Assembly (NCBI GenBank): GCA_964595725.1
Contig: CAZQRQ010000007.1
Coordinates: 6,039-70,038, forward strand
Length of the DNA stretch: 64,000 nt
DNA from: an uncultured Rikenellaceae bacterium
Lineage (GTDB): Bacteria; Bacteroidota; Bacteroidia; Bacteroidales; VadinHA17
Direction of reading: 5' to 3'
Shown: one piece after another, positions 8,093 to 45,168 of the stretch
Layout of the letters: every line of letters starts with the position of its first letter
Position numbering within the stretch: position 1 is the stretch's first letter
Position numbers and translations under genes: made by a program
The notes under the pieces: generated by a model
What the model saw: the letters and a program-made list of their open reading frames with translations, nothing else
Told to the model about the DNA's origin: nothing
Database searches by the model: none

Positions 8093-8104
8093 AGAGAGTC
8101 AGGG

Positions 8105-9391
8105 TCAATTGCCTATTTTGTACAAATAATTATCGGTCCTGAGGATTACAGCATTCCTGAGGAATGCAGGTGTTGCCCAGATACCTGATTCCATCTTGTT
8201 CTCTGCAATAACTTCATACTTCCTGCCTGCTTTGATGGTAATGACATCTCCCCGTACTGAAAAAAGCCATATGTTCCCGTTAAGATATATTGGTGAAGCA
8301 TTATAGTTTGCTGTCAGTCTCGTGGTCCAAATTTCGTTGCCTGTTCCTGCATCGACACACATCAGGATATTTCGGGTGGTTATTGTATATATCAGGCCGT
8401 CTTTGATTATCGGGGTGAGCATCTGATTATTCGTAAGAGGATCAGTTTTCTTCCAGATTATGTTGGTTTTTGTTATATCTCCTTTACCGTCAGGATTGAC
8501 GGCAACGAATTCCGAATATTTACTCCCTCTGCTATCGACTATATAACCATTATACCAGTAGAGGATACCATTCTCAGTGACGGGCATGGAAATAGTAGAT
8601 TCAGCACCACCGATCACTCTCCATATCTCTCTGCCTGTCGATGGATCGAGTGCCTGGCATACTGCCGATCCATTGGAAATAAGCATATCCTGGCCCCTGA
8701 CATTAATTAGCAGCGGAGTAACATATGCTTTTCTCCCGATTGATGTCAGAGGTCCATAAGGTTCAGTTGGTCTGTCAGTCTTCCATACCTGCTTACCTGT
8801 TGCCTTATCAAGACCAACAATAAATCTCATATCAGTGCCCTCGAAATGCAGGATAAGAAGATTCCTGTAAATTACCGGCGATGATGCCGGCCCCTGTACA
8901 TATCTTACAGAATAATCGTTGTTTTTCCATATAATTGATCCGTTTGATATATTTATGCAGGCAGTCCCGCTGCTACCATAATGAACGTAGACAAATCCTT
9001 TTTCTATTGATGGAGTTGGTGTTGCATAACTGTTGAAATTATGTTTTCCTTCAACTTTTTCAGGGCTAAATACCTTTATATCATATATAATTTTCCCTGT
9101 TTCATAATCGATACAGACAGCGTAAAGATTCCTGCCGTCAGCACTTGCAGTGGTAAGCCACACCTGGTTACCGTAAATAACAGGAGAAGAAAGGCCACGG
9201 TTATGAATAACTGTCTTCCATTTTACAGATGAATCATCCCATTTAAGAGGAACATCCCCTGATTCTGCAATTCCATTCAGATTACTGCCCCTGAAATGTG
9301 TCCAGTCACCTGACTGCGCGGAAATACTTCCAGAAGCCATAAACGATACGACCAGAATATTTAACCAGATAAACAATGTCTTACTTTTCAT
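8105..9391 (-). CDS. PQQ-like beta-propeller repeat protein (BamB-like fold), secreted
   Basis: 428 aa with a signal peptide. Repeated W-x-blade motifs are present (GKIIYDIKVF, GKQVWKTDRP, GREIWRVIGG, GNEIWTTRLT). Confidence 0.7.
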   Translation of the reverse strand: MKSKTLFIWLNILVVSFMASGSISAQSGDWTHFRGSNLNGIAESGDVPLKWDDSSVKWKTVIHNRGLSSPVIYGNQVWLTTASADGRNLYAVCIDYETGKIIYDIKVFSPEKVEGKHNFNSYATPTPSIEKGFVYVHYGSSGTACINISNGSIIWKNNDYSVRYVQGPASSPVIYRNLLILHFEGTDMRFIVGLDKATGKQVWKTDRPTEPYGPLTSIGRKAYVTPLLINVRGQDMLISNGSAVCQALDPSTGREIWRVIGGAESTISMPVTENGILYWYNGYIVDSRGSKYSEFVAVNPDGKGDITKTNIIWKKTDPLTNNQMLTPIIKDGLIYTITTRNILMCVDAGTGNEIWTTRLTANYNASPIYLNGNIWLFSVRGDVITIKAGRKYEVIAENKMESGIWATPAFLRNAVILRTDNYLYKIGN

Positions 9392-9601
9392 TATTATAAA
9401 GATTAAGCCCTAAATCTATGAAAATTAGCTGTCGGGATAATGATATATGATACTTCAGATATATTTTTATGATTAATTGACACTATTGTTTAAAAATGGT
9501 TAAGCAAAAAGGTTAATGATACTTAAAAAAATGGATGATTATTTCTGCTTTAAAAAAAAATTATAATCTTGCGTTTCTTAACCTAAAAAGGGTAATCTAT
9601 C

Positions 9602-11353
9602 ATGCAAAAAATGAAATTTGATATTTCCAGATTAAAGGGTAAACTGGGCAGGATGAGGGACTGGCTGGACGGACATAATATGCCTCCCAGGCTTCTTTTT
9701 TTTGTAATGGGTATTGCATCAACTATATGGTTCCTTGTCAGGGTCATACCTAAACCATCAAGGGCGACATACCCCTGTATGCGGGTGGCGGCACCATTTA
9801 TGTCGGGATTTGTTGCTTATCTTCTTGCAGTTGCCGGACTTACGGCTGTCTCGAGGAGGATGAAGAGGAAGATTATTAACGTAAGGCTTGGAGCTGCTGT
9901 CCTGCTGCTTACAGGAGTTGTTGCTGCGATGGCAATAATGCCTGAGAGCATAACTACCAGGCTGTTTCAGGATGCGGATGTATATACCGGACCTGACGAT
10001 GGTCCCAACCAGCCTATCGGAGAAGCCAGGGGGATTTATCCGGGTCGTGTGGTCTGGGTATGGAACCCTGATGCCACGAACGAGAAGTTTGAGCATAATG
10101 ACCTCGATACGTATAACTGGTTCGTAAACGCCGAGAATAATAATCCCGAAGTTATAGCTAAAATGTTCCGCGACGGTGTTCTTAAACTGACAGGTGAAAA
10201 GGATACCAAAAAAGCATGGGATACTATGTTCAGGTTTTTTAATGAGAAGAAGAAAGGCGAAAATATAGGATATACAAAAGGAGAAAAGATATTCATCAAG
10301 ATAAACCAGGGTCAGTCAAGATGGCTTCTTTCACAGGAAGACAAGGATAATGGTTTTGCAATTCCTCATACTCTTCAGAGTAGCCAGGAGAGAAGCAGAC
10401 GCAGTTACATACCTACGGAAACGGGTCCTTATGCTGTCCTTGAATTGTTGAGAGAGCTGGTTGATGCCGGGGTTAGTCAGGAGGACATATCGATTGGAGA
10501 TCCGATGTGTCCGATATGGGCTCATAACTATGATGTATGGGTAAAGGAATTCCCGAAAGTGAAATACCTTGACAGGAATACAACTGACTATGGACGGACT
10601 CTTACCTCTTATTCAGAAGAATCATTGGTTTTCTATTCAGATAAGACCATCACAGATAAGCTCTACGATGTAATTGAAAATGCTGATTACATGATCACAA
10701 GTGCTGTGCTTAAATGTCATGGTGCAGCAGGCGTTTCCATGACTGCAAAAAGTAATTTTGGTAATATCGGAAGACCTACAGCCGGTCATCTCCACTATTC
10801 ACATATAGCTAACAGAAGAGAAGGTATGCCTACCAATACCGGTTACCATAAATACAGGGTCTTTGTTGATCTTATGGGAAGCAAATATCTCGGACAGAAT
10901 ACCCTTTTCTGGTTTGTTGAGGGACTGTTTGGAGGAGGGTCAAGTGAAATACAGGGACCTGTAAAATACTTTTTGCCTCCATTTAATAACGACTGGAGTA
11001 ATTCCATGTTCATGTCACTCGACCCTGTTGCTATAGAATCAGTATGTTATGATTTTCTAAGGTCTGAGTGGAATGGAACCTATGAACATGATCCGGTGAA
11101 CAATGGATGGGAAAAAATGGCTAATACGAATGGTGTCGATGATTATATGCATCAGGCTGCAGATCCTACCAACTGGCCGGAAGGCATCGTCTATGATCCT
11201 GATAACAGTGGTAAGCCTGTTCCGGTTCTGGGAGTTCATGAACACTGGAATAACCCTGTTGACAAGCAGTATTCACGTAACCTGGGAACAGGAAATGGCA
11301 TAGAACTTGCATCTATACCTGAAGATCTTGTAAAAAATGTTAAAAGGAGGTGA
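9602..11353 (+). CDS. DUF362 domain-containing protein with N-terminal TM segments
   Basis: 583 aa with 2-3 N-terminal TM helices. The central and C-terminal region (KIFIKINQG..., LKCHGAAGVSMTAKSNFGNIG, SLDPVAIESVCYDFL) is DUF362-like and resembles ORF 61762-62844. Confidence 0.55.
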   Translation: MQKMKFDISRLKGKLGRMRDWLDGHNMPPRLLFFVMGIASTIWFLVRVIPKPSRATYPCMRVAAPFMSGFVAYLLAVAGLTAVSRRMKRKIINVRLGAAVLLLTGVVAAMAIMPESITTRLFQDADVYTGPDDGPNQPIGEARGIYPGRVVWVWNPDATNEKFEHNDLDTYNWFVNAENNNPEVIAKMFRDGVLKLTGEKDTKKAWDTMFRFFNEKKKGENIGYTKGEKIFIKINQGQSRWLLSQEDKDNGFAIPHTLQSSQERSRRSYIPTETGPYAVLELLRELVDAGVSQEDISIGDPMCPIWAHNYDVWVKEFPKVKYLDRNTTDYGRTLTSYSEESLVFYSDKTITDKLYDVIENADYMITSAVLKCHGAAGVSMTAKSNFGNIGRPTAGHLHYSHIANRREGMPTNTGYHKYRVFVDLMGSKYLGQNTLFWFVEGLFGGGSSEIQGPVKYFLPPFNNDWSNSMFMSLDPVAIESVCYDFLRSEWNGTYEHDPVNNGWEKMANTNGVDDYMHQAADPTNWPEGIVYDPDNSGKPVPVLGVHEHWNNPVDKQYSRNLGTGNGIELASIPEDLVKNVKRR

Positions 11354-11372
11354 AAACTGCTAAATATAAGCA

Positions 11373-12458
11373 ATGAGCAAACAAACACTAACCATTGATA
11401 TTCTGAAATTTTTAAGAGCAACCCGGTTGAGTATTTTGTCGGCATTATTAATGCTGTCAGGTATTTTTATTCAGGGTATCAGCGCCCAGCCTGCCGGAAA
11501 TGTAAATCCTATAGGAGAAGAAATTAATGCAAAGAAATTCTACTCATCAGCTGTTGATGAGGATAATACGGTCTGGTTTCTTTCTGATGCCGGAATAGTC
11601 AGTTTTGACGGAACAAAATGGTCCTTGCATAATAAGAACCGTAAAGTCAGCTCAACTGACCTTAAAGACGTGGTCTACGATTTCTCCTCATACGGGCCTG
11701 AGCTATGGCTGGCTACTCCCCAAGGTGCTACTGTTGTTTCCGTTCCGGTTGATGCAAGATCAGGTGCCACAACGTATTACAGCGAAAATTCTGAGATTAT
11801 TAGTGAGAATGTTCTGGCTGTGGCAGTCGGGAAGAAAGAGCTAAGATGGTTCGGCACGGACAGGGGGATTTCCGCATTTAAAGGCAGGAAGTGGCTGACC
11901 AACAATTACGCCAGGAAATACCCGGAAGGTATGTTCAAGGATTTCCCGATAACCGCTATGGCAACAAGCGTTGACGGGGATTCAGTATATGTTGCAACCA
12001 TGGGCGGCGGGGTATTCAGGCTATACAGGAACGACGTGGACGCTGTATCAGGTGCATCCGATTATGCAGGCTGGGGTCCTATTCTCATTCCTTCCGATAA
12101 TGTCTTCTGTGTTCATATCTCATCCGATGGAACACAGTGGTTCGGTACAGATATGGGAGTCGGGAAACACGCTGGATTCAATACACTTGAAGGCTGGGAA
12201 GTATTTACAACTGTTGAGGGCCTGGCAGATGATGTTGTCAAGGCTATCAATTCAGATACAAAAGGGAATATGTATTTTGGAACTAAGAACGGTTTTTCGG
12301 TATTTGACGGTAAAACCTGGACTACATACAGAACTGACTCGGGACTTGTGAGTAATAATATTTTAACAATTACGGTCGACAGGGCAGGGGCTGTCTGGCT
12401 TGGTACCGACAGCGGAGTCTCATGTTATAAGAAGGGTGAATTCACCAGTTATCAGTGA
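11373..12458 (+). CDS. Secreted beta-propeller protein with two-component-regulator-propeller (Reg_prop)-type repeats
   Basis: 361 aa with a signal peptide. Recurrent W(F/L)GT(D)xG(I/V)S motifs are present (WFGTDRGISAF, WFGTDMGVGKH, YFGTKNGFSVF, WLGTDSGVSCY). Confidence 0.6.
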   Translation: MSKQTLTIDILKFLRATRLSILSALLMLSGIFIQGISAQPAGNVNPIGEEINAKKFYSSAVDEDNTVWFLSDAGIVSFDGTKWSLHNKNRKVSSTDLKDVVYDFSSYGPELWLATPQGATVVSVPVDARSGATTYYSENSEIISENVLAVAVGKKELRWFGTDRGISAFKGRKWLTNNYARKYPEGMFKDFPITAMATSVDGDSVYVATMGGGVFRLYRNDVDAVSGASDYAGWGPILIPSDNVFCVHISSDGTQWFGTDMGVGKHAGFNTLEGWEVFTTVEGLADDVVKAINSDTKGNMYFGTKNGFSVFDGKTWTTYRTDSGLVSNNILTITVDRAGAVWLGTDSGVSCYKKGEFTSYQ

Positions 12459-33061: not shown

Positions 33062-33262
33062 CCTCACCCCAAGCCCCTCTCCCATGAGAGAGGGGCTTAA
33101 GATTTACAGAGTACTGTTGATGGTTAATAAAGACAAGACAATTGTAAGAGACATGTATTTTAATGTAAAGTCTGAGCTATTCGGACTTGCAAACTATATG
33201 AGAAAGCATCCGACTGAAGCGGAAAGAATTCTTTGGGAGAGGGGGATAAGAGGGGGTGAGGT
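33061..33262. repeat. Palindromic element bounded by CCTCACCCC ... GGGGGTGAGG, enclosing a truncated DUF559-type endonuclease remnant
   Basis: The termini are ACCTCACCCCAAGCCCCTCTCCC and GGGAGAGGGGGATAAGAGGGGGTGAGGTC. An internal hairpin is GCCCCTCTC-CCATGA-GAGAGGGGC. The interior (33153-33240, +) encodes ...LANYMRKHPTEAERILWE, which resembles the N-terminus of DUF559/Vsr-like endonucleases and is then cut off by the terminal repeat. Confidence 0.6.
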
Positions 33263-34692
33263 CAATTCAGCACTTCAATATCGAAAACCTCGTGCCTGTC
33301 AAGTTCCCTCCAGTACTTGATCGAGTTCTTTCTCACCAGCTCCCAGTATATGTTGCTGTCCAGGCCATATACAAAATTGAATTCCTTTAGCTCTCCGCTT
33401 ATTTTTTCAGCGAGATCAGGTTTCAGCCTGAGACGGATCCTGTGGTTTAGGTAGGTAAAGTCGACCATCGGTAGCTTTGCCGTATCGCTTCGTACTGTAA
33501 GAAGCCCGTGTCCGGGTGTTGCACCGGTACTAACCTGTATGCCGTCGTTCATGCAGCTTAAGGGTGGCTCTGAGCCGGCATATGAGACAGCAGTAAATTC
33601 ATCCACTCCGGTATTGAAATATTCCCTTGCTCTTATACCCATCTTGACACCTATAATGGAAAATGTTCCGAGATGCCTGTGCAACTCATTACCGATAACT
33701 CCAGATATCCATTCATCATGCCCGTATTTGTCAATAATCTCAGTAACATAGGGTTGGATGTCGTCGAAATAGAACCCCGGATCCTCAGGGATATTCTTGA
33801 TCACCTGGTTATGCTCCACTGTTTCGCCGCCGACTATTTTCAGGTACCCTTCCTTTAGCCCGGGAATGTCAGCCGGCCTGTATTCCGAGTTGGTTCCCGA
33901 TTCTGTTCTACTGAAATGTTGCGGGTATTGAAGATACAAAGGCACAAGTTCGTCATAAGGAATCATAGCAAAATCATGGTTTCTTGCTGTTTCTGAATCA
34001 AGAAAGAGGCTTATTTTATTAGCATAAGGTGTCTTTACATTTTTGATACCGGTCATCAGGCCGGCATCATAGAAGCCGGTTGCTCCGCCAGTGATAACTG
34101 CAGCTACCGGGATTTCCCGGTCGAGTATATACCTGGAGGCCTGTTTGTCAACACTGTAATTGAATCCCTTAGTATCCTTCAGCCCGTCGCAGCTCCAAAT
34201 GATCTGTTTTAGATGGTCTTTAAGATCAGTTACCTCCCGGAGAGCAGTGGCCACGGTCGACAAACCGCCAAGGCAGACAAAGTTGATCTTCGAGGGCTCA
34301 TATTTAATGACATCTTTTACGAAAGTCGTAAAATCAGGGGCACCTGAGGGTGTAATCAGGGTTTCATCTCCCCAATGATAACCAAGTGCAGCAGCCATAT
34401 CCGGTGATTTAAAACTGCAAAAGCGATTGACCGTAACCGGTATGCCTTCATGGTAGTAGGAATTGAGCATGCTTTTCACCTTAACATATGTGTTTTCGGC
34501 ACTAAGAGAGCCGGGTGAACAGACAATGCCGAGCACTCTTACATCTGGCGAAGCCAGCATCATGCTTATCGCCTTCATATCGTCAATCCCTCCGTCGGTA
34601 TCTATAATGACATAATGACTTGGTTTCCAGGGATGAGCTGCCAGCAAAGAATACATAACCAGCCCACAGAGAAGCAGAACAATCCTTTTCAT
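33262..34692 (-). CDS. Exported inosine-uridine nucleoside hydrolase-like domain fused to an FmdE-like C-terminal domain
   Basis: 476 aa with a signal peptide. The IUNH motif is IIDTDGGIDDMKAISM. The C-terminal segments ELHRHLGTFSIIGVKMGIRA and CMNDGIQVSTGATPGHGLL look FmdE-like with most Cys ligands replaced. Confidence 0.55.
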   Translation of the reverse strand: MKRIVLLLCGLVMYSLLAAHPWKPSHYVIIDTDGGIDDMKAISMMLASPDVRVLGIVCSPGSLSAENTYVKVKSMLNSYYHEGIPVTVNRFCSFKSPDMAAALGYHWGDETLITPSGAPDFTTFVKDVIKYEPSKINFVCLGGLSTVATALREVTDLKDHLKQIIWSCDGLKDTKGFNYSVDKQASRYILDREIPVAAVITGGATGFYDAGLMTGIKNVKTPYANKISLFLDSETARNHDFAMIPYDELVPLYLQYPQHFSRTESGTNSEYRPADIPGLKEGYLKIVGGETVEHNQVIKNIPEDPGFYFDDIQPYVTEIIDKYGHDEWISGVIGNELHRHLGTFSIIGVKMGIRAREYFNTGVDEFTAVSYAGSEPPLSCMNDGIQVSTGATPGHGLLTVRSDTAKLPMVDFTYLNHRIRLRLKPDLAEKISGELKEFNFVYGLDSNIYWELVRKNSIKYWRELDRHEVFDIEVLN

Positions 34693-34806: not shown

Positions 34807-36333
34807 GTGAAGAAAAAAATACTTCTCTGGTTTTTACCCGGCATCCTGGTGGGAGTTTTGATTATTCTTGGTTCCGGGAAAGTTATCGAAAGAACATCGG
34901 CTAATGAATATTGCATGTCGTGTCATATACACCCTGGCGCGGATGCCATGTGGAAGAGATCTGTACACTATGAAACCTCATCGGGAGTCAGGACATCATG
35001 CGTAGACTGCCATCTTCCGCCAAAGGGACACGGGTATCTTTGGGCCAAGGCAAGAACCGGCCTTCGTGACCTGTGGAGCTTCTGGACAAAAGACTCTGCA
35101 TCGTTTGACTGGGATGAAAGGGGAAGGCTGGAAATCGCAAGGACCCATGTCTATGAGAGCAGTTGTACAAATTGCCATGAAAACCTTTTTCCCCTGGAAC
35201 TGACAACGGAAGGCGAGAACGCTCATCTTTATTACAGGCAGAACAGGGAGAAGATGGAAGACCTTCACTGTATCAACTGTCATCTTAATTCAGGCCATTA
35301 TATTGAAGGATACACTCATGGCAGCAATGCGACTTTTGGGAAAGCAACGTCAGCCCCCATGGAGGTTTTCCGTGAGCCGGCGGAGGTTACTTCTTTCGTT
35401 TCCTACAGGGAGCAGATACCTAACTCTACTGTTTCTTTCAATATGCTGACAATACCTGGAGGGACATTCATGATGGGAAGTCCTCCTGATGAATCTTTCA
35501 GGTCTGAGAATGAAGGACCGGTCCGCCAGGTGGAGATAAGCCCTTTCTTTATGGCAGAGGTTGAAGTAACATGGGATGAGTATCTTGCATTTTATGCACA
35601 GACAGCCTCGGAGGGAAGAAGTTCAGACACCAAGGCTATGAGAGCAGGATCTGAAAAGAATGTCGATGCTATCTCGGGAGCCACGCCTCCTTACGGGCAG
35701 CCTGACCAGGGCTGGGGAATGGGGCAGCGGCCGGCAATATCGATCACTTACCATGCAGCTGAAACCTATTGCAGGTGGCTTTCCCAGGTGACCGGCAAGA
35801 CATACAGGCTGCCAACCGAGGCAGAGTGGGAATACGCCTGCAGGGCAGGAACTCAGACTCCCTATTTCTTTGAAGGTGATCCTGAAAAATTTCAAAAAAC
35901 CGGTCTCAGGGCCAGGTTATCAAGGAATGATACTGCTGTAATAAATACATACGTTATATACAAAGGCAACAGTGCATCCAAGACGCAGCCCCCGGAAAAG
36001 GTTAAGGCCAACCCGTTCGGTTTGAAAAATATGCTCGGCAATGTCGCGGAATTCTGTTCAGACTGGTACCAGGAAGTCATATTTTCTTCGTATAATAATG
36101 AATCTGTTAAAGATCCCCGTGGTCCGGAAAATGGTTCTGAACATGTGATACGCGGCGGCTCATTCAGGGATTTGGCTGGCAGGGTTCGTTCTGCTGTGCG
36201 CGATTATACAAGAACTGATGACTGGCTGAAGACAGATCCCCAGATCCCTAAAAGCATATGGTGGTACTCGGATTGTTTCAATGTTGGCTTCAGGGTAGTG
36301 TGTGAGTTTGACGAAAAGACAGGAAAGTTGTAA
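34807..36333 (+). CDS. NapC/NirT-type tetrahaem cytochrome c fused to an FGE/SUMF1-family domain
   Basis: There are four CXXCH motifs (CMSCH, CVDCH, CTNCH, CINCH) after a TM helix (ILLWFLPGILVGVLIILG). The C-terminal half carries FGE-sulfatase motifs (GGTFMMGSP, WEYACRAG, GNVAEFCSDWY, VIRGGSF). GTG 34807 is preferred as the start because the track start 34615 overlaps the divergent gene. Confidence 0.75.
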   Translation: MKKKILLWFLPGILVGVLIILGSGKVIERTSANEYCMSCHIHPGADAMWKRSVHYETSSGVRTSCVDCHLPPKGHGYLWAKARTGLRDLWSFWTKDSASFDWDERGRLEIARTHVYESSCTNCHENLFPLELTTEGENAHLYYRQNREKMEDLHCINCHLNSGHYIEGYTHGSNATFGKATSAPMEVFREPAEVTSFVSYREQIPNSTVSFNMLTIPGGTFMMGSPPDESFRSENEGPVRQVEISPFFMAEVEVTWDEYLAFYAQTASEGRSSDTKAMRAGSEKNVDAISGATPPYGQPDQGWGMGQRPAISITYHAAETYCRWLSQVTGKTYRLPTEAEWEYACRAGTQTPYFFEGDPEKFQKTGLRARLSRNDTAVINTYVIYKGNSASKTQPPEKVKANPFGLKNMLGNVAEFCSDWYQEVIFSSYNNESVKDPRGPENGSEHVIRGGSFRDLAGRVRSAVRDYTRTDDWLKTDPQIPKSIWWYSDCFNVGFRVVCEFDEKTGKL

Positions 36334-36367: not shown

Positions 36368-37744
36368 ATGAAAAAATCAGAAATTTCAAGACGCAGGTTC
36401 CTCGGAACCACAGCAATTGCCGGAGCTGCAGGATTTGTGGCGCCATCTATAATTACCGGATGCTCATCCTCATCCAGGGATAAGGAGAAAAACTTTGTTC
36501 CGGTTGCAGACCACGAGTGGCTCGACCAGGCTCCTGACGGTGCTGAATTAAGGGCCGGTATAATAGGGTGCGGCGGTCGCGGTACAGGGGCGGCTCGTAA
36601 TTTCCTCAGTGCGGGATCTAACCTGAAGATTATCGCACTTGGTGATACTTTCAAGGACAGGATAGACGATTGTAATGCAGCCATAAAGGAAAAATCCGGC
36701 GAAGCTGTACCTGAAGATAAATGCTTCGTTGGTTTTGACGCATTTGAAAAAGTAATTGCCGAACCTGTCGATATTGTAATACTGGCCACACCACCATATT
36801 TCCGGCCTGTACACCTTGCAGCTGCTGTCGCTGCCCGGAAACACATTTTTGCCGAGAAACCGATATGTGTCGATCCGGTCGGCGCACGCTCGGTGATGGC
36901 AACAGCTCTGAAGGCTAAGGAATTGGGTTTGACAATAGTGACAGGAACACAAAGACGCCACCAGCGCGATTATGTAGCTTCATATCAGCAGATCCAGGCT
37001 GGAGCTATCGGAGAGATAGTCGGCGGAAACATCTGGTGGAACGGTGGAAAACTATGGCATAAGGATAAAAATCCTGACTGGACAGAAATGGAGTGGATGA
37101 TCCGCGACTGGGTTAACTGGACATGGCTGTCGGGAGACCATATAGTTGAACAGCACGTTCACAATATTGATGTAATGAACTGGTTCACCGGATCACACCC
37201 GGTAAAGGCTGTTGGAATGGGTTCACGCCTCAGACGAATTACCGGCGATCAGTTTGATAATTTCAGTGTTGATTTTGTATTTGATAATGATATGCATTTT
37301 CATAGTATGTGCCGCCAGATCAACGGATGTGCAAATAATGTTTCTGAAAGGATTCAGTGTAGCAAAGGAGCTGCCTACTTATTCCAGAGCCAGGAAGTCT
37401 ACCAGACCAACCTTGCAAATGAGGAAATATGGAGGTATGAGTATCCGCTGGATGATGAAGGGAAAACTTCAAAAAGTAAAATGAAGGATCCTTATGTGCA
37501 GGAGCATATTGACATGGTAGCTGCAATACGAAATGGCAAACCTTTTAATGAACTCGAAAACACTGCGATATCAGTAATGACTGCAATAATGGGCCGTGTA
37601 TCGGCCTACACCGGGAAGGAAACTACCTGGGAAGAGATGATGAACTCAGATCTTAAACTCGGACCAAAAGTACTGGCTTTCGGTCCTGTTGATATACCTA
37701 AAGAGGTCCCTGTTGCTGGGGATGCTTATCAGCCTGAAGCTTAA
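36368..37744 (+). CDS. Gfo/Idh/MocA family oxidoreductase with a TAT signal
   Basis: 458 aa. The twin-arginine leader is SRRRFLGTTAIAGAAGF and the Rossmann motif is LRAGIIGCGGRGTGAA. Confidence 0.8.
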   Translation: MKKSEISRRRFLGTTAIAGAAGFVAPSIITGCSSSSRDKEKNFVPVADHEWLDQAPDGAELRAGIIGCGGRGTGAARNFLSAGSNLKIIALGDTFKDRIDDCNAAIKEKSGEAVPEDKCFVGFDAFEKVIAEPVDIVILATPPYFRPVHLAAAVAARKHIFAEKPICVDPVGARSVMATALKAKELGLTIVTGTQRRHQRDYVASYQQIQAGAIGEIVGGNIWWNGGKLWHKDKNPDWTEMEWMIRDWVNWTWLSGDHIVEQHVHNIDVMNWFTGSHPVKAVGMGSRLRRITGDQFDNFSVDFVFDNDMHFHSMCRQINGCANNVSERIQCSKGAAYLFQSQEVYQTNLANEEIWRYEYPLDDEGKTSKSKMKDPYVQEHIDMVAAIRNGKPFNELENTAISVMTAIMGRVSAYTGKETTWEEMMNSDLKLGPKVLAFGPVDIPKEVPVAGDAYQPEA

Positions 37745-37783: not shown

Positions 37784-38731
37784 ATGAATACCTCCAGAAG
37801 GAATTTCATAAAAAAAGCGACGGCATCAGGTGCAGCGATAATAACTGCGCCCGCTGTTTTCGGTTCTTCTGTCTCCATCAGGAAACAAAAGACCCAGGAT
37901 GCTGCTACTCCGTTTAAGCTTAAATATGCTCCCGGCCTGACCATGTTCAGGCAAAATGCAGGTGATGACTTTGTGGATAATATTAAGTTCTGCCACGACC
38001 AGGGTTTCAGGGCAATATTTGACAACGGCCTTCCCAACAGGTCGCCCGAAGACCAGGAGAGAATTGCCGCTGAGGTGCAGAGGCTTGGTATGGATATGGG
38101 TCCCTTTGTTCTGAGAGGTGACCCGGGAATACCCGACTTCGTTCTTAACAAAAAGGACGTACGCGAAATGCTTATCGGAGTGATGAAATCGGCTGTCGAG
38201 GTTTCTAAGCGGACCGGCGTAAAACAGGCCCTGATAGTACTTGGGAGATATGATGATAAGCTCCATATTGATTTCCAGACTGCCAACGCGATCGATAACC
38301 TCAGGGCTTGCTGTGATGTACTTGAACCCGAAGGTATACAGCTTGTCCTTGAATCATTGAACAACCTTATAAATCATCCTGGCCTGTTTCTAACCAGGAT
38401 TCCGCAGGCTTATATGATCTGCAGGGCAGTTAACAGGCCATCATGCAAGGTACTCGACGATCTTTACCACCAGCAGATCACCGAGGGTAATCTTATCCCG
38501 AACATTGATGCGGTCTGGAGTGAGCTGGGGGCTTTCCACTGCGGGGATCACCCTGGCAGGAATGAGCCAGGGACAGGTGAGATAAACTTCAAAAACGTCT
38601 TCAGGCATATTTACGAAAAGGGATATGACGGTACTATATGCATGGAGCATGGAATAAGCCTGAGAGGCACGAAAGAGGGTGAACTTAAGGTGATCCAGGC
38701 TTACCGCGATGCCGACAGCTTTGATGTATAA
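37784..38731 (+). CDS. Xylose-isomerase-like TIM-barrel protein (sugar phosphate isomerase/epimerase or hydroxypyruvate-isomerase-like) with a TAT signal
   Basis: 315 aa. The leader is SRRNFIKKATASGAAIITAPAVFG. Conserved segments are LVLESLN and CMEHG. Confidence 0.65.
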   Translation: MNTSRRNFIKKATASGAAIITAPAVFGSSVSIRKQKTQDAATPFKLKYAPGLTMFRQNAGDDFVDNIKFCHDQGFRAIFDNGLPNRSPEDQERIAAEVQRLGMDMGPFVLRGDPGIPDFVLNKKDVREMLIGVMKSAVEVSKRTGVKQALIVLGRYDDKLHIDFQTANAIDNLRACCDVLEPEGIQLVLESLNNLINHPGLFLTRIPQAYMICRAVNRPSCKVLDDLYHQQITEGNLIPNIDAVWSELGAFHCGDHPGRNEPGTGEINFKNVFRHIYEKGYDGTICMEHGISLRGTKEGELKVIQAYRDADSFDV

Positions 38732-39842
38732 AAGGATATTAAAGTCAGTTGTCTTATCAGCGTTGGTGCCAGTAATGCTTACAGGTTGTTCTGAGAATCC
38801 CTTATTCTTCGCCGGAAGGTACACCGGGAGCGGGGACCCATCGGGCCTGTACCTTTTTGAGATGAACAGGCGTAATGGTGATATCCGGCATGTGAGGGAA
38901 TTCAACGCAGGGCCGAATCCTTCGTTTTTCTGTTTGAACAGGGAGAGGAAGATCATCTACCTTATAAATGAAGTTAATGAGTACAGAGGAGAAAAGGGAG
39001 GCGGGCTTTCCACTTTCATCTATAATCCCGGGAGAGGCAATGTCGTTTTAGCTGGTGAGATGCTTATTCCTTTCGGCGGCCCGTGTTATGTGTCCCTTAC
39101 TCCTGATGAGGATTATCTTCTGATAGCGAACTATCAGAATGCATCAGTACTTGCAGTGAGACTAGATGAAGAAAAAATACCTGAAGTCGTTTCGGATACT
39201 GTTTTATACCAGCCCGGCGACAGCACCCTTTCTCATGCCCATATGATCAGCTATGATCCCCGGGGTGAATTCATATACGTAACAGATTTGGGGACGGACA
39301 AGATACTTACCTATTATTTTAACAGGGATTCAGCCAGATTTGACCTTATAAATAACGGAATAGCATATTTACCGGATAAATCAGGTCCGAGGCATTTTGT
39401 TTTTAATGCCGAAGGCACAAGGATGTATGTAATTAATGAACTGGCATCGACATTGTCTGTTTTCAGCAGGGAGGAAAACGGAGAGCTCAGGTTACTTCAG
39501 ACCTGCAGCACATTGCCTGATAACTATAAAGGAACCAGCTATTGCGCGGAAATATGTATCAGCAATGACGGCAGATTTATCTACGGATCGAACCGGGGCC
39601 ATAACTCAATTGTTATATTCAGTATCGGTGATGATGGCCAGCTGACCCCGTCCGGAATTGTTTCGTGTGGTGGAGAATGGCCCAGATATTTTACCCTGGA
39701 TCCTTCGGGGAATTATCTCCTTGTCGGAAACCAGGAATCAGGCGATATATCAGTATTCAGGGTAAACAGAAGGACAGGCATGCTAAAAGGCCCAATATCA
39801 CGAGAGAATATTCCTGATGTTGCATGCATTGCTTTCCTGTGA
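38724..39842 (+). CDS. Lactonase, 7-bladed beta-propeller family lipoprotein
   Basis: The start ATG 38724 overlaps the upstream stop (ATGTATAA) and gives lipobox VMLTGCS. Repeated ...Y(V/L)..N..S..(I/L)(S/A)VF blades are present (ASVLAVRL, LSVFSRE, IVIFSIG, ISVFRVN). Confidence 0.7.
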   Translation: MYKRILKSVVLSALVPVMLTGCSENPLFFAGRYTGSGDPSGLYLFEMNRRNGDIRHVREFNAGPNPSFFCLNRERKIIYLINEVNEYRGEKGGGLSTFIYNPGRGNVVLAGEMLIPFGGPCYVSLTPDEDYLLIANYQNASVLAVRLDEEKIPEVVSDTVLYQPGDSTLSHAHMISYDPRGEFIYVTDLGTDKILTYYFNRDSARFDLINNGIAYLPDKSGPRHFVFNAEGTRMYVINELASTLSVFSREENGELRLLQTCSTLPDNYKGTSYCAEICISNDGRFIYGSNRGHNSIVIFSIGDDGQLTPSGIVSCGGEWPRYFTLDPSGNYLLVGNQESGDISVFRVNRRTGMLKGPISRENIPDVACIAFL

Positions 39843-39929
39843 AGATATAGTTGGTTAGAGGTTTAAAAAAGTATCAGGATTTAAAATCATTCAGTTGAGT
39901 TATATTTGAAAAAAAATAGGAAAGGAAAT

Positions 39930-41174
39930 ATGAAGCTTACACTTTTCGATGAAAATAGAAGACTTAGGTTCATTATCGGTATTGTGCTGGTTGGTGTCAT
40001 ACTTTTAGTTAGTTTTTTGACGGTAGGCAATAAGCCTTACAGGAATTATGTTGTTATGGTTTCTTTTGATGCATTCAGGTGGGATTATGACAGTGTCTAC
40101 CAGACTCCTTACATGGATAGACTTGCCGAGCAAGGAGTTATGGCTGAGAAGTTAATATCCTGTTTTCCATCAAATACATTCCCAAATCACTATGCTATAG
40201 CAACAGGACTATATCCTGATCATCACGGTATTGTCAATAACAGTTTTTATGCTCCGGATCTTGGACTTTCATACAGGATAAGCGACAGGGAGGCGGTCGG
40301 GAATCCCGACTTTTACAAAGGGGAACCAGTTTGGGTGACAGCAATGAAACAGGGGAAAATTGCAGCTTCTTTTTTCTGGGTTGGATCGGAAGCTCCTGTT
40401 TCAGGGATGCACCCGACATACTGGAAGATTTACGATGAAAATATCACATACAGCGAGAGAATAGATACAGTCATCAAATGGCTTAAGTATCCAAGAGGCA
40501 GAAGGCCTCAGCTTGTAACTCTTTATTTTGATGAACCGGATGCAACAAGCCATGACTTTGGCCCGGTATCACCTGAAACGGGAAAGGTGGTTACCAGGCT
40601 CGACAGCCTGCTGGGGGTAATCCGGGACAAGCTTTCATCTCTTCCATACGGGAAAAGGATTAATCTGATCCTGCTTTCCGATCATGGCATGTCGCAGGTA
40701 TCATCAAAGAGATATAATAACATTCGTGATATCATTCCTGAAAGAATGATAAGTTCCATCAATGGGGGTAATCCTGTATATATGATCGACCCCTCCAAAG
40801 GAAAGGCTGACAGTATAGTCCTGCTTATCAATAAAACTGTCGGAGTGAAAGCCTGGAAGAAAGAAAATCTGCCATCTGAATGGCATTACGGAACAAATCC
40901 CAGGATTGCTGAAATTATAGCTGTGGCAGACAGCGGCTGGTATCTGGGTATGCGTCCGAACACAAGAGAATTTACTGGAGGTGCTCATGGTTATGACAAC
41001 ATGAACAGCGACATGGCAGGGATCTTCTACGCGAGTGGACCTGCATTTAGGAGGGGATATTCCGTGCACAGGCTAAACAATATTGACATATATAACCTTG
41101 TTTGCAGGATACTGGATCTTGAACCTGCCAGGAATGACGGCGATCCATCTCATATTACTGAACTTTTAAAATAA
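39930..41174 (+). CDS. Ectonucleotide pyrophosphatase/phosphodiesterase (alkaline-phosphatase superfamily)
   Basis: Motifs are VSFDAFRWDY, FPSNTFPNHYAIATGLYPDHHGIV, YFDEPDATSHDFGP, LSDHGM and GAHGYDN. Confidence 0.8.
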   Translation: MKLTLFDENRRLRFIIGIVLVGVILLVSFLTVGNKPYRNYVVMVSFDAFRWDYDSVYQTPYMDRLAEQGVMAEKLISCFPSNTFPNHYAIATGLYPDHHGIVNNSFYAPDLGLSYRISDREAVGNPDFYKGEPVWVTAMKQGKIAASFFWVGSEAPVSGMHPTYWKIYDENITYSERIDTVIKWLKYPRGRRPQLVTLYFDEPDATSHDFGPVSPETGKVVTRLDSLLGVIRDKLSSLPYGKRINLILLSDHGMSQVSSKRYNNIRDIIPERMISSINGGNPVYMIDPSKGKADSIVLLINKTVGVKAWKKENLPSEWHYGTNPRIAEIIAVADSGWYLGMRPNTREFTGGAHGYDNMNSDMAGIFYASGPAFRRGYSVHRLNNIDIYNLVCRILDLEPARNDGDPSHITELLK

Positions 41175-41243: not shown

Positions 41244-42803
41244 ATGAAGCGTGAAAATCTTATCAGCGAACTGAAAGGTCAACCGGAGCCGGGATGGGAA
41301 GTTATCATAATAGGTGGTGGTGCTACAGGTCTTGGAATCGCGTTGGATTCTGTGACAAGAGGATATAAAACACTTTTGCTTGAGAAAGTTGACTTTTCAC
41401 AGGGAACGTCTTCGAGGAGCACTAAACTTGTCCATGGCGGAGTGCGATATCTTGCGCAGGGTGATATCTTACTCGTAATTGAAGCTCTCAGGGAACGTGG
41501 AAGGATACTAAGAAACGCTCCTCATATAACTTCTGACCAGGAGTTTATAATACCTCTTTACAGTTTATTCAATGTTTTCCTGTATTATTTTGGATTGAAA
41601 TTCTACGATATCCTGTCCGGAAGGCTCAGCCTGGGTAAGTCATATTATATTTCGAAGGAAGAAGTAGCCGGAAGGTTGCCATTAATAAATAAGGCAGGTC
41701 TTAAAGGTGGAATTGTATATCACGATGGCCAGTTTGATGATTCGCGAATGGCAATTTCTATTGCGGCAGAATATATCAGCAGAGGAGGTATTGCACTAAA
41801 TTATTTTCCGGTCAAAGAGCTTCTTAAGGATGGGAATGGAAATATATCCGGGGTTGTAGCTGTCGATACCCAATCCGGCATAAGGTATGAATTAAGAAGC
41901 AGGCTGGTAATAAATGCAACCGGAGTGTTTGCTGACGAGATACTGAAGCTTGATGATCCGGATTCAGAAAATATAATAAGGCCTAGCCAGGGTGTTCATA
42001 TCGTACTCGATAAGAAATTTCTGCAGGGTGATTCAGCAATAATGATTCCAAAGACTGACGACGGCAGGGTGCTTTTTGCTATCCCCTGGTACAACAGGGT
42101 TGTCGTCGGGACAACAGATACACCCCTTGATGAGATCTCATCTGAACCTACTGCTCTCTATGAGGAAATCGATTTTATCCTTTCCACGGCAGGTAAATAC
42201 CTCTCAGTGCAGCCTGTCCGATCTGATATCCTGTCGGTATTTGCCGGGCTGCGCCCGCTCGCTTCTGATCCCGGCAATCCCGATTCAACAAAGGAGATAT
42301 CAAGAAGACATAAGATCCTTCTCTCTTCTTCCGGTTTGCTGTCGATAACTGGAGGTAAGTGGACAACATACAGGATGATGGCTGAAGAAACCCTCAACAA
42401 AGCTATTAAAGCCGGAATTTTACGCAAGTCAGCTTGTATAACGAAAGAATTGGTCATTGATCATAAACCGGATAACCTTCTAAAAGGCCATCTGTCAGCA
42501 TATGGCGCAAAAGCTCAGGAGATCATTGGGTTAATGAGTGAGAACCCCGGTCTGGGTTCTACACTTTGCCCATCGTTGCCATATACAAGAGCTGAAATAG
42601 TATGGATATGCAGAAACGAAATGCCTGTAAATATTGATGATATACTGGCCAGAAGAACCAGGGCACTATTTCTCGATGCCAAAGCGAGTATGAAAGTGTC
42701 GGGTGAAGTGGCTGAGATAATGGCCAGGGAAATGGGGCGGGATGAAAACTGGCAGAAGGAACAGGTTGATTCATTCCATAGATTAGCGGGTAATTATTTG
42801 TAA
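41244..42803 (+). CDS. glpD: FAD-dependent glycerol-3-phosphate dehydrogenase
   Basis: 519 aa. The FAD motif is VIIIGGGATGLGIALD, followed by KLVHGGVRYL. It lies upstream of glpK and glpF. Confidence 0.85.
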   Translation: MKRENLISELKGQPEPGWEVIIIGGGATGLGIALDSVTRGYKTLLLEKVDFSQGTSSRSTKLVHGGVRYLAQGDILLVIEALRERGRILRNAPHITSDQEFIIPLYSLFNVFLYYFGLKFYDILSGRLSLGKSYYISKEEVAGRLPLINKAGLKGGIVYHDGQFDDSRMAISIAAEYISRGGIALNYFPVKELLKDGNGNISGVVAVDTQSGIRYELRSRLVINATGVFADEILKLDDPDSENIIRPSQGVHIVLDKKFLQGDSAIMIPKTDDGRVLFAIPWYNRVVVGTTDTPLDEISSEPTALYEEIDFILSTAGKYLSVQPVRSDILSVFAGLRPLASDPGNPDSTKEISRRHKILLSSSGLLSITGGKWTTYRMMAEETLNKAIKAGILRKSACITKELVIDHKPDNLLKGHLSAYGAKAQEIIGLMSENPGLGSTLCPSLPYTRAEIVWICRNEMPVNIDDILARRTRALFLDAKASMKVSGEVAEIMAREMGRDENWQKEQVDSFHRLAGNYL

Positions 42804-42831
42804 ATTGTAATAAATCAATATTAGGCGGCTT

Positions 42832-44334
42832 ATGACAAAGTACATTCTGGCTCTTGACCAGGGCACCACGAGTTCAAGGGCTATAATATTCGATTATACA
42901 GGGATGCCTGTTGCTACTGCTCAGAAAGAATTCAGGCAGTTATTCCCTGAGCCGGGATGGGTAGAGCACGATCCCGAGGAGATATGGTCGTCGCAATCGG
43001 AAGTCGCAATTAAATCGCTTTCTGATTCCGGGATCAGGATAGATGAAATTGCAGCACTTGGGATTACAAATCAGCGGGAAACGACACTTGTCTGGGACAG
43101 GAGGACGGGCAAGCCGGTTTATAATGCCATTGTATGGCAGGACCGACGAACTTCTGAATATTGCGACAGGTTAAACTCAAAGGGATATGGGGAGATAGTA
43201 CAACGAAAAACAGGTTTGATTATCGATGCGTATTTTTCTGCCACTAAAATAAGATGGATCCTTGATAATGTGGAGGGAGCCGGCGAATTGGCAGAAAAAG
43301 GGAACCTTGCCTTCGGTACTGTTGATTCCTGGCTAATATGGAAACTTACCGGGGGGAAGCTGCATGTAACGGATGTTACAAACGCATCGAGAACGATGCT
43401 ATTCAATATTAACACCCTCGAGTGGGACGATGATCTTATTGAGCTTTTTGAAATACCACGATCAGTGTTGCCCGAGGTCAGGTCATCCAGTGAAGTCTAT
43501 GGAGAAACAAGCGAATGTTTCTCATCACCTGTAAAAATTGCAGGTATAGCAGGAGATCAGCAGGCTGCTCTTTTCGGTCAGATGTGTGTCGAGCCGGGCA
43601 TGGTAAAAAACACTTACGGCACCGGCTGCTTCATGGTCATGAATGTGGGTAAGGAGCCGATACGCTCCAATAACCAGCTGTTAACAACAATCGCATGGCA
43701 GATAAATGATACAGTTCATTATGCAATTGAAGGAAGTATATTCATCGCAGGGGCTGTTGTTCAATGGCTTCGCGATGGGTTGGGTGTTATCAGGGAGTCA
43801 GGAGAGATTGAGAAGCTGGCCTCAGAGGTAAATGATTCAGACGGTGTATATTTTGTACCTGCCTTTGCCGGTCTTGGTGCTCCGCACTGGATTCAACATG
43901 CCAGGGGAACCATTGTCGGGATAACACGTGGAACAACGTCAGCAAACATAGCCAGGGCTGCCCTCGACAGCATCGCCTTTCAGACTTATGATGTGCTCCG
44001 TGGCATGCAGGAAGACGCAAAACTGGCTATCAGTGAACTCAGGGTCGATGGCGGTGCAACCGTAAATAATAAACTGATGCAGTTTCAGGCCGACCTGCTT
44101 CAGGCAAGCGTTGTGAGACCTAAGATAACCGAAACAACCGCGCTTGGAGCTGCATACCTGGCAGGACTGGCTGTTAAGTTCTGGAACTCCCTGGAAGATA
44201 TCAGGGGCCAATGGCAGGTTGACAGGAGCTTTACTCCGGGATTGAATAACCAGCAGGTAATGGAGCTTGTCCAGGGTTGGCACAGGGCTGTCAGGACTGC
44301 AATAGCATGGGCTGATGACAGGGGAAGTGCTTAA
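42832..44334 (+). CDS. glpK: Glycerol kinase
   Basis: 500 aa. Motifs are [29 protein letters not shown] and [10 protein letters not shown]. Confidence 0.92.
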
Positions 44335-44365
44335 AGTGCCTAAAGTACTTAGAGTACCTAGAGTT
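44325..44365. repeat. Degenerate 9-bp tandem repeat (about 4.5 units) spanning the glpK stop codon
   Basis: AAGTGCTTA AAGTGCCTA AAGTACTTA GAGTACCTA GAGTT. Confidence 0.6.
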
Positions 44366-44457
44366 GTTTTTCTGTTGTCTTAACTTTGGCTCACTCCCTG
44401 TCTGACGACAGGCAGACAAACTTCTAAATCATATGATAACAACTTAATAATCAAACT

Positions 44458-45168
44458 ATGAACGCATTCTTTGCTGAGTTTTTCGGGACAGCCATGATCC
44501 TTGTCTTCGGAAGCGGCGTTGTTGCTAATGTCGTACTAGACAAAACAAAGGGGAATAACAGCGGATGGGTAGTGATCTCCTTCGGATGGGCCATAGGGGT
44601 TTTTACCGGTGTCCTGATTGCCGCAACCTACAGTGGAGCTCATCTCAACCCTGCTGTCACCCTGGCTCTTGTACTGGCGCATAAGTTCTCACCTTCCCTG
44701 ATGCCTCTTTACATACTTGCACAGATCCTTGGAGCGATGTTTGGATCGGGCCTTGCCTGGCTTGCATACAAGAAGCATTTTGATGCAACTGATAATCCTG
44801 ACCTCAAGCTAGCGGTTTTCTGTACGGCTCCGAATATCAGAAGCTACTGGTATAATGTAATAACAGAGGTTGTCGGCACTTATATTCTTGCCCTGGCCGT
44901 TTTATACATGGCTGCCCCTGACGTAGGACTCGGCGCACTGAATGCACTGCCCGTAGCGCTGGTTGTCCTTGGAATAGGGTTATCACTTGGCGGTCCTACG
45001 GGTTACGCTATCAATCCCGCCCGTGACCTTGGTCCCAGGATACTGCACTTTTTACTTCCGATCAGGGGTAAGCGCGATTCGGACTGGAAGTATTCATGGG
45101 TGCCGGTACTGGGTCCAATGGCAGGCGCAGCACTTGCAGCATTAATGTACCTTCTTTTTGCAGGTTAG
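44458..45168 (+). CDS. glpF: MIP-family glycerol uptake facilitator (aquaglyceroporin)
   Basis: 236 aa with two NPA boxes (HLNPAVT, INPARD). Confidence 0.9.
   Translation: MNAFFAEFFGTAMILVFGSGVVANVVLDKTKGNNSGWVVISFGWAIGVFTGVLIAATYSGAHLNPAVTLALVLAHKFSPSLMPLYILAQILGAMFGSGLAWLAYKKHFDATDNPDLKLAVFCTAPNIRSYWYNVITEVVGTYILALAVLYMAAPDVGLGALNALPVALVVLGIGLSLGGPTGYAINPARDLGPRILHFLLPIRGKRDSDWKYSWVPVLGPMAGAALAALMYLLFAG

Follow-up and report, generated by a model that had tools for sequence, protein, structure and literature searches.

The 64,000-nucleotide (nt) stretch of DNA analysed here (the window) comes from an uncultured Rikenellaceae bacterium of the Bacteroidales (assembly GCA_964595725.1, contig CAZQRQ010000007.1, positions 6,039 to 70,038 of the forward strand). 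It contains a gene for a fusion protein, a widespread membrane protein in which a four-haem cytochrome of the quinone-pool type is joined to a domain resembling formylglycine-generating enzyme (FGE). The gene heads a same-strand cluster of redox and sugar enzymes exported through the twin-arginine translocation (Tat) pathway, an arrangement that an initial annotation of the window had proposed and that Pfam matches and signal sequences confirm. Its immediate downstream neighbour encodes a lipoprotein dehydrogenase of the Gfo/Idh/MocA family (Gfo), and genes for a TIM-barrel enzyme, a lactonase and a phosphodiesterase follow (Table 1). We suggest that the fusion protein and this Gfo probably constitute a respiratory dehydrogenase, in which electrons would pass from bound NAD(P)H to a tethered flavin mononucleotide (FMN), along four haems and into menaquinone.

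The cytochrome and the FGE-fold domain

The start of the fusion gene at 34807 is likely because homologues begin with MKKI at that same position; a longer version from an ATG at 34615 is less likely, as it would run into the divergent gene upstream (33262-34692, reverse strand). Pfam places Cytochrom_NNT (NapC/NirT, PF03264) at amino acids (aa) 2-164 (E 1.7e-27, 96.7 bits against a cut-off of 24.1) and FGE-sulfatase at approximately aa 212-466 (E 4.4e-46, 158 bits against 23.3). Both halves of what had initially been read from the DNA, an N-terminal transmembrane (TM) helix with four CxxCH motifs of NapC/NirT type and a C-terminal FGE fold, are borne out by these matches, and the motifs quoted for the latter were found at aa 218-226 (GGTFMMGSP), 341-348 (WEYACRAG), 411-421 (GNVAEFCSDWY) and 449-453 (RGGSF). 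The fusion is not an artefact of assembly or of a frameshift, since the best 120 protein clusters listed, all of ~506 aa, have both Pfam domains, Cytochrom_NNT and FGE-sulfatase, and a full-length paralogue (54% identity) is encoded on a second contig, C61, of the same genome; with both domains in one chain in these relatives and in the paralogue, the alternative of a split gene or masked frameshift, which had been raised for this locus, falls away.

The N-terminal module shares with the NapC/NirT cytochromes (NrfH, CymA, NapC) a single TM helix, four CxxCH motifs within ~165 aa, and the Lys and Asp of the quinol site. In a model built with AlphaFold2 (AF2) on a 76-row alignment, the helix comprises aa 2-29, and it aligns with the TM helix of NrfH. 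K81 and D88 align with Lys82 and Asp89 of the NrfH quinol site; K81, G85 and D88 are invariant in the NapC-fused relatives, as are C36, C39, H40 and H42 in and beside the first haem motif (alignment A1). His42 occupies the position of the NrfH Met ligand (CMSCHIH versus CxxCHxM), so that the window protein lacks a signature which is a trait of the NrfH subtype and not of the whole Pfam family PF03264. Scores against the NCBIfam equivalogs were below cut-off for NrfH (67 versus 134 bits), napC_nirT (59 versus 311) and TorC (76 versus 478), and, judged from its sequence, the module belongs to the NapC/NirT Pfam family and to none of its named equivalogs. The window protein differs from the rest of this family in its additional 310-aa FGE-fold domain, in the invariant His that replaces the haem-1 Met ligand of NrfH, and in having an NAD(P)-dehydrogenase, not a terminal reductase, as its partner; quinone is here probably reduced. 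Predicted local distance difference test (pLDDT) values fall below 50 in the linker region at aa 161-174 and 180-185.

Over most of the C-terminal domain pLDDT exceeds 90, the exceptions being the loop at aa 269-286 (below 50) and the residues that follow it (53-75). The best phmmer match of the domain in the PDB was the FGE of T. curvata (2e-24), and the best Foldseek match was PvdO (5hha; target TM-score (TMt) 0.74, E 1.4e-18), followed by FGEs at about E 1e-17. The domain has in common with FGE/SUMF1 the fold and the motifs RLPTEAEWEYA, GNVxEW/F and RGGS, and differs from it in lacking both copper-binding Cys and a conserved sulfatase partner and in carrying two insertions that flank the former substrate groove. 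Where the T. curvata enzyme reads GGSFLCHESYCNRYR, with both Cu-binding Cys, the window protein reads RGGSFRDLAGRVRSAVR instead, and no Cys is conserved at this segment in the relatives. Among the 12 fused relatives and 76 family members compared, the FGE-like domain has no invariant His or Cys, and Pfam detected no DinB-like domain with a three-His iron site in the window protein. Scores against NCBIfam equivalogs were again below cut-off (PvdO 103 versus 500 bits, GldK 113 versus 350, EgtB 65 versus 360, SenA 72 versus 420, OvoA 38 versus 400), and a TM-anchored cytochrome N-terminus is present in place of the lipobox of the GldK/PorK lipoproteins.

On these residue patterns, the FGE-like domain is not a catalyst of the FGE or EgtB type. 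The initial annotation had envisaged that quinol-derived electrons are delivered to an FGE-fold active site, and had proposed an alignment of the catalytic residues; this alignment indicates that the Cu-binding Cys pair is not retained and that the domain has no invariant His, and with neither a conserved Cys nor a DinB module at hand there is no metal site of the FGE, EgtB or OvoA type to feed, leaving that part of the reading unsupported. PvdO, a periplasmic FGE-fold protein of Pseudomonas that is needed for dihydropyoverdine oxidation, is not only the best structural match but resembles the domain in being periplasmic, Cys-less and tied to an oxidation step. It differs from the window protein in having neither of the two insertions, no cytochrome fusion and no Gfo or ApbE neighbours, and the window locus in turn has no pyoverdine genes, its neighbours being the Gfo, TIM-barrel and lactonase genes.

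A subfamily linked to Gfo dehydrogenases and ApbE

Two insertions mark the FGE-like subfamily, and generic FGE-like proteins lack both; at the second, the outgroup sequences, one of them of true FGE type, show a gap. The first is the loop D-[AG]-[IV]-[ST]-x-[AP]-[TS]-x-P-[YWF] and the second a C-terminal block W-x3-D-P-Q-x-P-K-S-x-W-W. The domain belongs to a distinct FGE-like subfamily whose members come from six phyla or more. When 401 genomes of the phylum (the phylum sample) were searched in six frames, the full NapC fusion was recovered in only three, and about 30 further genomes encoded a stand-alone homologue of aa ~195-500 with a signal peptide and 35-46% identity. In a scan of all phyla, with one genome per species, the NapC-fused form was seen in Bacteroidales and as single cases in KSB1 and Acidobacteriota, and stand-alone forms in Flavobacteriia, Sphingobacteriia, Chitinophagia and Cytophagia as well as in Planctomycetota, Verrucomicrobiota, Acidobacteriota and Gemmatimonadota. 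A further architecture is evident in Verrucomicrobia and in Bryobacteraceae (Acidobacteria), where the FGE-like domain is preceded by PSCyt1 (“Planctomycete cytochrome C”) domains, either one or two of them, so that the joining to a c-type cytochrome has occurred a second time and independently. A search of 1.84 billion representatives was dominated by giant proteins with multiple FGE-domain repeats and yielded about eight useful family members.

Single members depart from these forms. One (L051) has a large FG-GAP-like N-terminal region fused to the FGE-like domain. In a metagenome-assembled genome of the Acidobacteriota (L042:7953-13554), the loop of the NapC-fused protein reads RAMSGPT and its CxxCH motifs number only three; a stretch with weak similarity to apbE is found just upstream, and the Gfo on the downstream side was matched in several pieces, which suggests decay or sequencing frameshifts. 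The genome of the window itself holds a second copy of the module (C61:94-5568), in which the fusion paralogue has the loop DAISGPT and is again followed by a Tat-exported Gfo, 49% identical to that of the window; a more distant Tat-exported Gfo (22%) and a 407-aa lipoprotein complete this copy.

The association with Gfo is independent of the form that the FGE-like protein takes, be it NapC-fused, PSCyt1-fused or stand-alone: a Gfo orthologue directly adjoins the FGE-like gene at 28/30 loci of the phylum sample and at 38/55 loci of the all-phyla scan, or about 80% of loci. These partners are 35-60% identical to the Gfo of the window, compared with only 22% for another Tat-exported Gfo of the same genome. 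The window Gfo begins with SRRRFLG...ITGC, a Tat signal followed by a lipobox, and has the Rossmann motif GxGxxG; its closest relative in the PDB is the C-glycoside 3-oxidoreductase DgpA1, and it scores 32 bits against the BT_2158 family model (cut-off 750). A TIM-barrel gene is a frequent third member beside the FGE-like/Gfo pair in many related loci, and its product would fall into the class of sugar isomerases, epimerases, lyases or dehydratases.

The first insertion has a further property. ApbE esterifies FMN to the final residue of the motif D-x-x-[S/T]-G-A-[S/T] (PMC12052999), to which the window protein has an exact match in this loop. A strict scan with D..[ST]G[AS][ST] matched only 2 of the first 30 loci, and alignment then revealed a conserved variant in the same loop. 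Among 51 diverse sequences, the first position is D in 49, the second [AG] in 45, the third [IV] in 46 and the fourth [ST] in 46, position 5 is R (23) or G (13), position 6 is P (43) or A (8), and the terminal T or S is present in all 51. The stretch preceding the motif differs in length between relatives, from 8 to 34 aa. In the loops of NapC-fused Bacteroidales, position 5 is G and position 6 is A or P, nearer to the canonical motif. The loop presumably corresponds to the “APWW” segment lining the peptide groove in human FGE, in which case the flavin would be placed at the mouth of the former active site, beside the Trp-rich insertion.

ApbE is encoded in 33/33 family-positive genomes of the phylum sample and in 230/368 others (Fisher p = 9e-7), and within one taxonomic family in 4/4 family-positive genomes and 5/16 others (p = 0.03), co-occurrence statistics that are corrected for phylogeny only in part. 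A Pfam-confirmed apbE lies directly beside the FGE-like or Gfo gene at 19/55 family loci and at 0/25 outgroup loci of generic FGE-like proteins (Fisher p = 4e-4). In the unbiased phylum sample, 14 of the 33 positive genomes have apbE within 5 kb of the family gene, where ~1% per genome would be expected (P ~7e-20). The genome of the window has one ApbE, with a lipobox, which is not linked to the window (G000:C4:57888-58724).

A maximum likelihood tree was calculated from 58 ApbEs, of which 32 are adjacent to the family genes and 26 lie elsewhere in the same genomes. From five phyla, 25 of the 32 adjacent ApbEs fall into one clade (Shimodaira-Hasegawa-like approximate likelihood ratio test (SH-aLRT) support 99) that contains none of the 26 others, and the remaining seven form a second clade in the Sphingobacteriaceae. 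Adjacency as a label changes twice on the tree, against ~19 changes in shuffles (0/500). Lineages with the R-P motif tend to have the dedicated ApbE, and the occurrence of a dedicated ApbE clade beside the variant motif [ST]-R-P-[TS] suggests a lineage of flavin transferases with altered substrate specificity. The NapC-fused Bacteroidales would depend on a housekeeping ApbE, of which this genome has exactly one.

No flavinylation motif is conserved among the Gfo partners (2/36 sporadic matches, none in the window Gfo), and in minimal clusters made up of FGE-like protein, Gfo, ApbE and sometimes the TIM-barrel enzyme, no other member carries one. A variant without an adjacent Gfo is seen in the Flavobacteriaceae, where a lipoprotein FGE-like gene is followed by a YceI-like gene and apbE; YceI, of a polyisoprenoid/quinone-binding family, might be the quinone-side partner where the cytochrome fusion is absent. 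Because the Gfos are motif-less and some FGE-like/ApbE loci have no Gfo, the FGE-like protein is the only consistent candidate for the ApbE substrate.

The predicted carrier resembles the ApbE-flavinylated proteins described previously (NqrC, RnfG, PplA and other FMN_bind proteins, and NosR; PMC8238504) in its periplasmic location and loop motif, in the presence of apbE in the genome and its adjacency in many relatives, and in its coupling to a membrane electron-transfer module. It differs from them in a fold that is FGE/PvdO-like, matching neither FMN_bind nor any other class named in two surveys of such proteins, in a flavinylation that is predicted, and in a family consensus, [ST]-R-P-[TS], with its own ApbE clade. 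FGE, sulfatase, NapC and Gfo go unmentioned in the main texts of Meheust et al. (PMC8238504) and of a 2024 follow-up. Our literature searches turned up no description of the fusion, of flavinylation on an FGE fold or of a link between ApbE and Gfo, and, among the papers searched, none that deals with flavinylation and formylglycine together or that brings ApbE together with MocA in a periplasmic setting; for the fusion, this agrees with the earlier statement that no characterised example was known.

Table 1. Features of the window (positions within the 64,000-nt stretch) and of the loci cited from other genomes
Feature	Position	Strand	Basis or remark
Cytochrome/FGE-like fusion gene	34807-36333	+	508 aa, GTG start, frame open to stop
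Membrane anchor, aa 1-29, one TM helix	34807-34893	+	Hydrophobic stretch ILLWFLPGILVGVLIILGSG
Haem motif 1, CMSCH, aa 36-40	34912-34926	+	Followed by I-H
Haem motif 2, CVDCH, aa 65-69	34999-35013	+	Sequence and alignment of relatives
Segment LWAKARTGLRD with K81 and D88	35038-35070	+	phmmer alignment to PDB 2j7a chain C
Haem motif 3, CTNCH, aa 120-124	35164-35178	+	Sequence and alignment of relatives
Haem motif 4, CINCH, aa 155-159	35269-35283	+	Sequence and alignment of relatives
Linker from haem module to FGE-like domain, aa 166-195	35302-35391	+	Poorly conserved, variable in alignment A1
FGE-fold (PvdO/FGE-like) domain, aa 196-508	35392-36330	+	Pfam, phmmer, AF2, Foldseek
Variable, probably disordered loop before flavin motif, aa 269-286	35611-35664	+	pLDDT <50
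DAISGAT, aa 287-293, predicted FMN site Thr293	35665-35685	+	Exact match to D-x-x-[ST]-G-A-[ST]
Former Cu-Cys segment RGGSFRDLAGRVRSAVR	36151-36201	+	Alignment to T. curvata FGE; Cys-less
C-terminal insertion WLKTDPQIPKSIWWYSD, aa 473-489	36223-36273	+	All family members; rich in invariant Trp, Lys, Asp
Tat-exported Gfo/Idh/MocA lipoprotein, NAD(P)-binding Rossmann dehydrogenase	36368-37744	+	Pfam GFO_IDH_MocA, C-terminal domain, TAT_signal
Tat-exported xylose-isomerase-like TIM barrel	37784-38731	+	Pfam AP_endonuc_2 2e-27, Tat signal
Lipoprotein 7-bladed beta-propeller lactonase	38709-39842	+	Pfam Lactonase 1.5e-86, lipobox MLTGC
Exported type I phosphodiesterase / NPP	39906-41174	+	Pfam Phosphodiest 7.7e-87
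Adjacent ApbE, examples	L061:10270-11286, L054:9627-10538, G388:C9:257109-257909		
Flavobacteriaceae FGE-like/YceI/apbE loci	L054:7896-10538, L086:7875-10487, G295:C1:2231275-2233744		
PSCyt1-fused members	L050:3167-5203, L053:7179-8948, L056, L047, L052, L060, L068		

Proposed electron flow and competing explanations

In the proposed dehydrogenase, the Tat-exported Gfo lipoprotein would oxidise a periplasmic sugar, glycoside or cyclitol with an NAD(P) that would be exported pre-bound and not exchange with a pool; such a non-exchangeable cofactor is established in the case of Zymomonas GFOR and has been proposed in that of BT2158 (PMC8121099). The genome's ApbE would covalently flavinylate the FGE-like domain on Thr293 of DAISGAT, and the loop-tethered FMN would accept the hydride from Gfo-bound NAD(P)H and split it into two one-electron steps. 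From there the electrons would travel along the NapC/NirT module, haem by haem over its four c-type haems, and reach menaquinone on the membrane surface, at the site that resembles that of NrfH. The fusion protein would act as the electron-transfer subunit, anchored in the membrane and facing the periplasm. Oxidases or other terminal reductases would drain the resulting menaquinol (one cytochrome bd oxidase and two haem-copper oxidase homologues are encoded in this genome), and the TIM-barrel enzyme and the lactonase may process the oxidised sugar. For the subfamily as a whole we see the case as evenly balanced: the FGE/PvdO-fold proteins could be an unrecognised class of ApbE-flavinylated carriers, with their own ApbE clade for [ST]-R-P-[TS] in most lineages, that re-oxidise the NAD(P)H of Gfo enzymes in at least six phyla, the NapC fusion of the Bacteroidales being a quinone reductase and, with its Gfo, a two-gene entry to the menaquinone pool.

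Several observations weigh against the proposed dehydrogenase and should temper its interpretation. NapC/NirT proteins are usually quinol oxidases and not quinone reductases. Across the family the canonical G-A of the flavinylation motif is mostly R-P ([ST]-R-P-[TS]), and we know of no described ApbE that accepts this variant. To the partial phylogenetic correction of the co-occurrence statistics is added the fact that apbE is adjacent at 0/10 loci of NapC-fused Bacteroidales, the clade of the window; because of this, the ApbE link of the window gene rests on its motif and on the single unlinked apbE. Roughly 20-30% of family loci have no adjacent Gfo, and they show no consistent substitute partner except for YceI with ApbE in the Flavobacteriaceae. 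Finally, cytochrome genes are mostly absent near the stand-alone members, which makes the cytochrome link specific to the fusions.

A rival reading is a redox-inert role, in which the FGE-like domain would be an adaptor or lectin-type module that docks the Gfo or its glycan substrate onto the cytochrome, with a loop of structural importance whose likeness to the flavin motif would have some other meaning. A lectin-type role was considered because it is from the C-type lectin fold that the FGE fold derives. In its favour, conservation of the canonical G and A of the ApbE motif does not extend to the whole family, the conserved aromatics (WW, Y, W) would also suit carbohydrate binding, and non-catalytic FGE-fold proteins are known, such as GldK/PorK and the immunity proteins of type VI secretion systems (T6SS). 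We nevertheless consider this unlikely, as it explains neither why apbE is so often adjacent nor why there is a dedicated ApbE clade and a 33/33 co-occurrence in genomes. The minimal clusters offer no other protein with a flavinylation motif; in addition, haem needs a converter from two-electron to one-electron transfer if it is to take the hydride of NAD(P)H.

The direction of flow could also be the reverse, from menaquinol through the NapC module to FMN and on to a periplasmic reduction, either of a keto-sugar by way of the NAD(P) of Gfo or of another acceptor directly at the flavin. Members of the NapC/NirT family are classically quinol dehydrogenases, and the window protein keeps the quinol-site residues of NrfH; the arrangement would be similar to that of Shewanella, whose CymA feeds flavoprotein reductases in the periplasm, ApbE-flavinylated ones among them, and the fusion-bearing Bacteroidales include anaerobes. 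Family membership, however, leaves the direction unfixed, since homologues of NapC that have been proposed to reduce quinone exist (cM552, ImoA). The potentials point the other way: with NAD(P)H at -320 mV, sugar ketone/alcohol couples below about -150 mV and menaquinone at about -75 mV, transfer from menaquinol to NAD(P)+ would be strongly uphill, and net reduction of a ketone by a couple lying above it unfavourable. Since the conserved partners (dehydrogenase, TIM-barrel enzyme and lactonase) also look catabolic, this makes flow from the dehydrogenase to the quinone pool the more likely direction, and its reversal distinctly improbable.

It is very doubtful that the FGE-like protein is instead a maturation or assembly factor of the Gfo, for example one that modifies or loads its cofactor after Tat export, rather than a steady-state carrier. 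The tight pairing of the two genes and the nature of the founding FGE family members, which are protein-modifying maturases, would be in line with such a role, but two independent and permanent cytochrome fusions and the ApbE link fit electron transfer better, and the catalytic residues of FGE are missing. Least credible of all is a periplasmic oxidative catalyst of the FGE, EgtB or PvdO type that acts on a protein, peptide or small molecule and is fed from the quinol pool via the tetrahaem module, as first supposed for this gene. Fold and sequence are nearest to PvdO and FGE, and PvdO (the NCBIfam dihydropyoverdine dehydrogenase) is likewise periplasmic, of FGE fold and devoid of Cys, and has a redox role. 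But the domain lacks a Cu-Cys pair, any conserved His or Cys and a DinB module, scores far below the PvdO, EgtB, SenA and GldK cut-offs, and has Gfo, TIM-barrel and ApbE genes as its conserved neighbours in place of sulfatase or pyoverdine genes.

As a system, the proposed dehydrogenase most resembles the ApbE-flavinylated extracytosolic electron-transfer modules of Meheust et al. (PMC8238504) and of the 2024 follow-up. Its logic is also that of mycofactocin, a dedicated partner that re-oxidises the non-exchangeable NAD of nicotinoproteins, but the parts are unrelated and the compartment is another, mycofactocin being a cytoplasmic peptide-derived cofactor of Actinobacteria (PMC3023750). Zymomonas GFOR and the BT2158-type Gfo of Bacteroides are alike in Tat export and in the expected non-exchangeable NAD(P), and the window Gfo adjoins a xylose-isomerase-like TIM-barrel gene, as in 3-keto-glycoside pathways. 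Those enzymes are thought to recycle their cofactor via a second sugar in a redox-neutral ping-pong, whereas the dedicated haem (and probably flavin) partner seen here points to a net oxidation that feeds respiration.

Bacteroidota, Planctomycetota, Verrucomicrobiota and Acidobacteriota are rich in Tat-exported Gfo/Idh/MocA enzymes, which have a central place in newly described periplasmic 3-keto-glycoside pathways. The way in which these enzymes recycle their cofactor has been called unresolved (PMC8121099). If the proposal holds, a haem/flavin outlet would answer the question of how NAD(P) is re-oxidised in a compartment without a nucleotide pool (PMC8121099), and the complex would be a new kind of respiratory dehydrogenase, providing gut and sediment Bacteroidales with an uncounted energy-conserving route from sugars. 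The catalogue of post-translational flavinylation would likewise gain the FGE fold, along with a variant recognition motif that has an ApbE lineage to itself. The fusion family is widely mis-annotated in databases, and thousands of annotations, such as “SUMF1/EgtB/PvdO family nonheme iron enzyme”, would need correcting.

Other genes near the module and elsewhere in the genome

Two further multihaem cytochromes of the same genome, at C66:~10600-12130 (reverse strand; 507 aa, six CxxCH) and C55:~8100-9500 (reverse strand; 459 aa, five CxxCH), gave weak Cytochrom_NNT matches and have no FGE domain; they were set aside as unrelated to the fusion protein.

Within the cluster itself, the lactonase gene lies outside the conserved module, as none was found beside the FGE-like/Gfo pair in the other loci scanned. 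Its first 23 nt (38709-38731) are shared with the end of the TIM-barrel gene, which suggests translational coupling. The divergent gene upstream of the fusion encodes a protein with a signal peptide and an unusual pairing of an inosine-uridine nucleoside hydrolase domain (Pfam 2.4e-21) with FmdE (6.2e-13). The membership of the phosphodiesterase (NPP) gene in the module is uncertain, a homologue being found near the pair in just one other locus (L041). Directly 3' of the periplasmic cluster, at 41244-45168 on the forward strand, lies a glycerol operon that encodes a GlpD-like flavin adenine dinucleotide (FAD) dehydrogenase, a glycerol kinase and a facilitator of the MIP family; together with the phosphodiesterase gene, this operon raises the possibility that the neighbourhood handles substrates of the glycerophosphodiester type.

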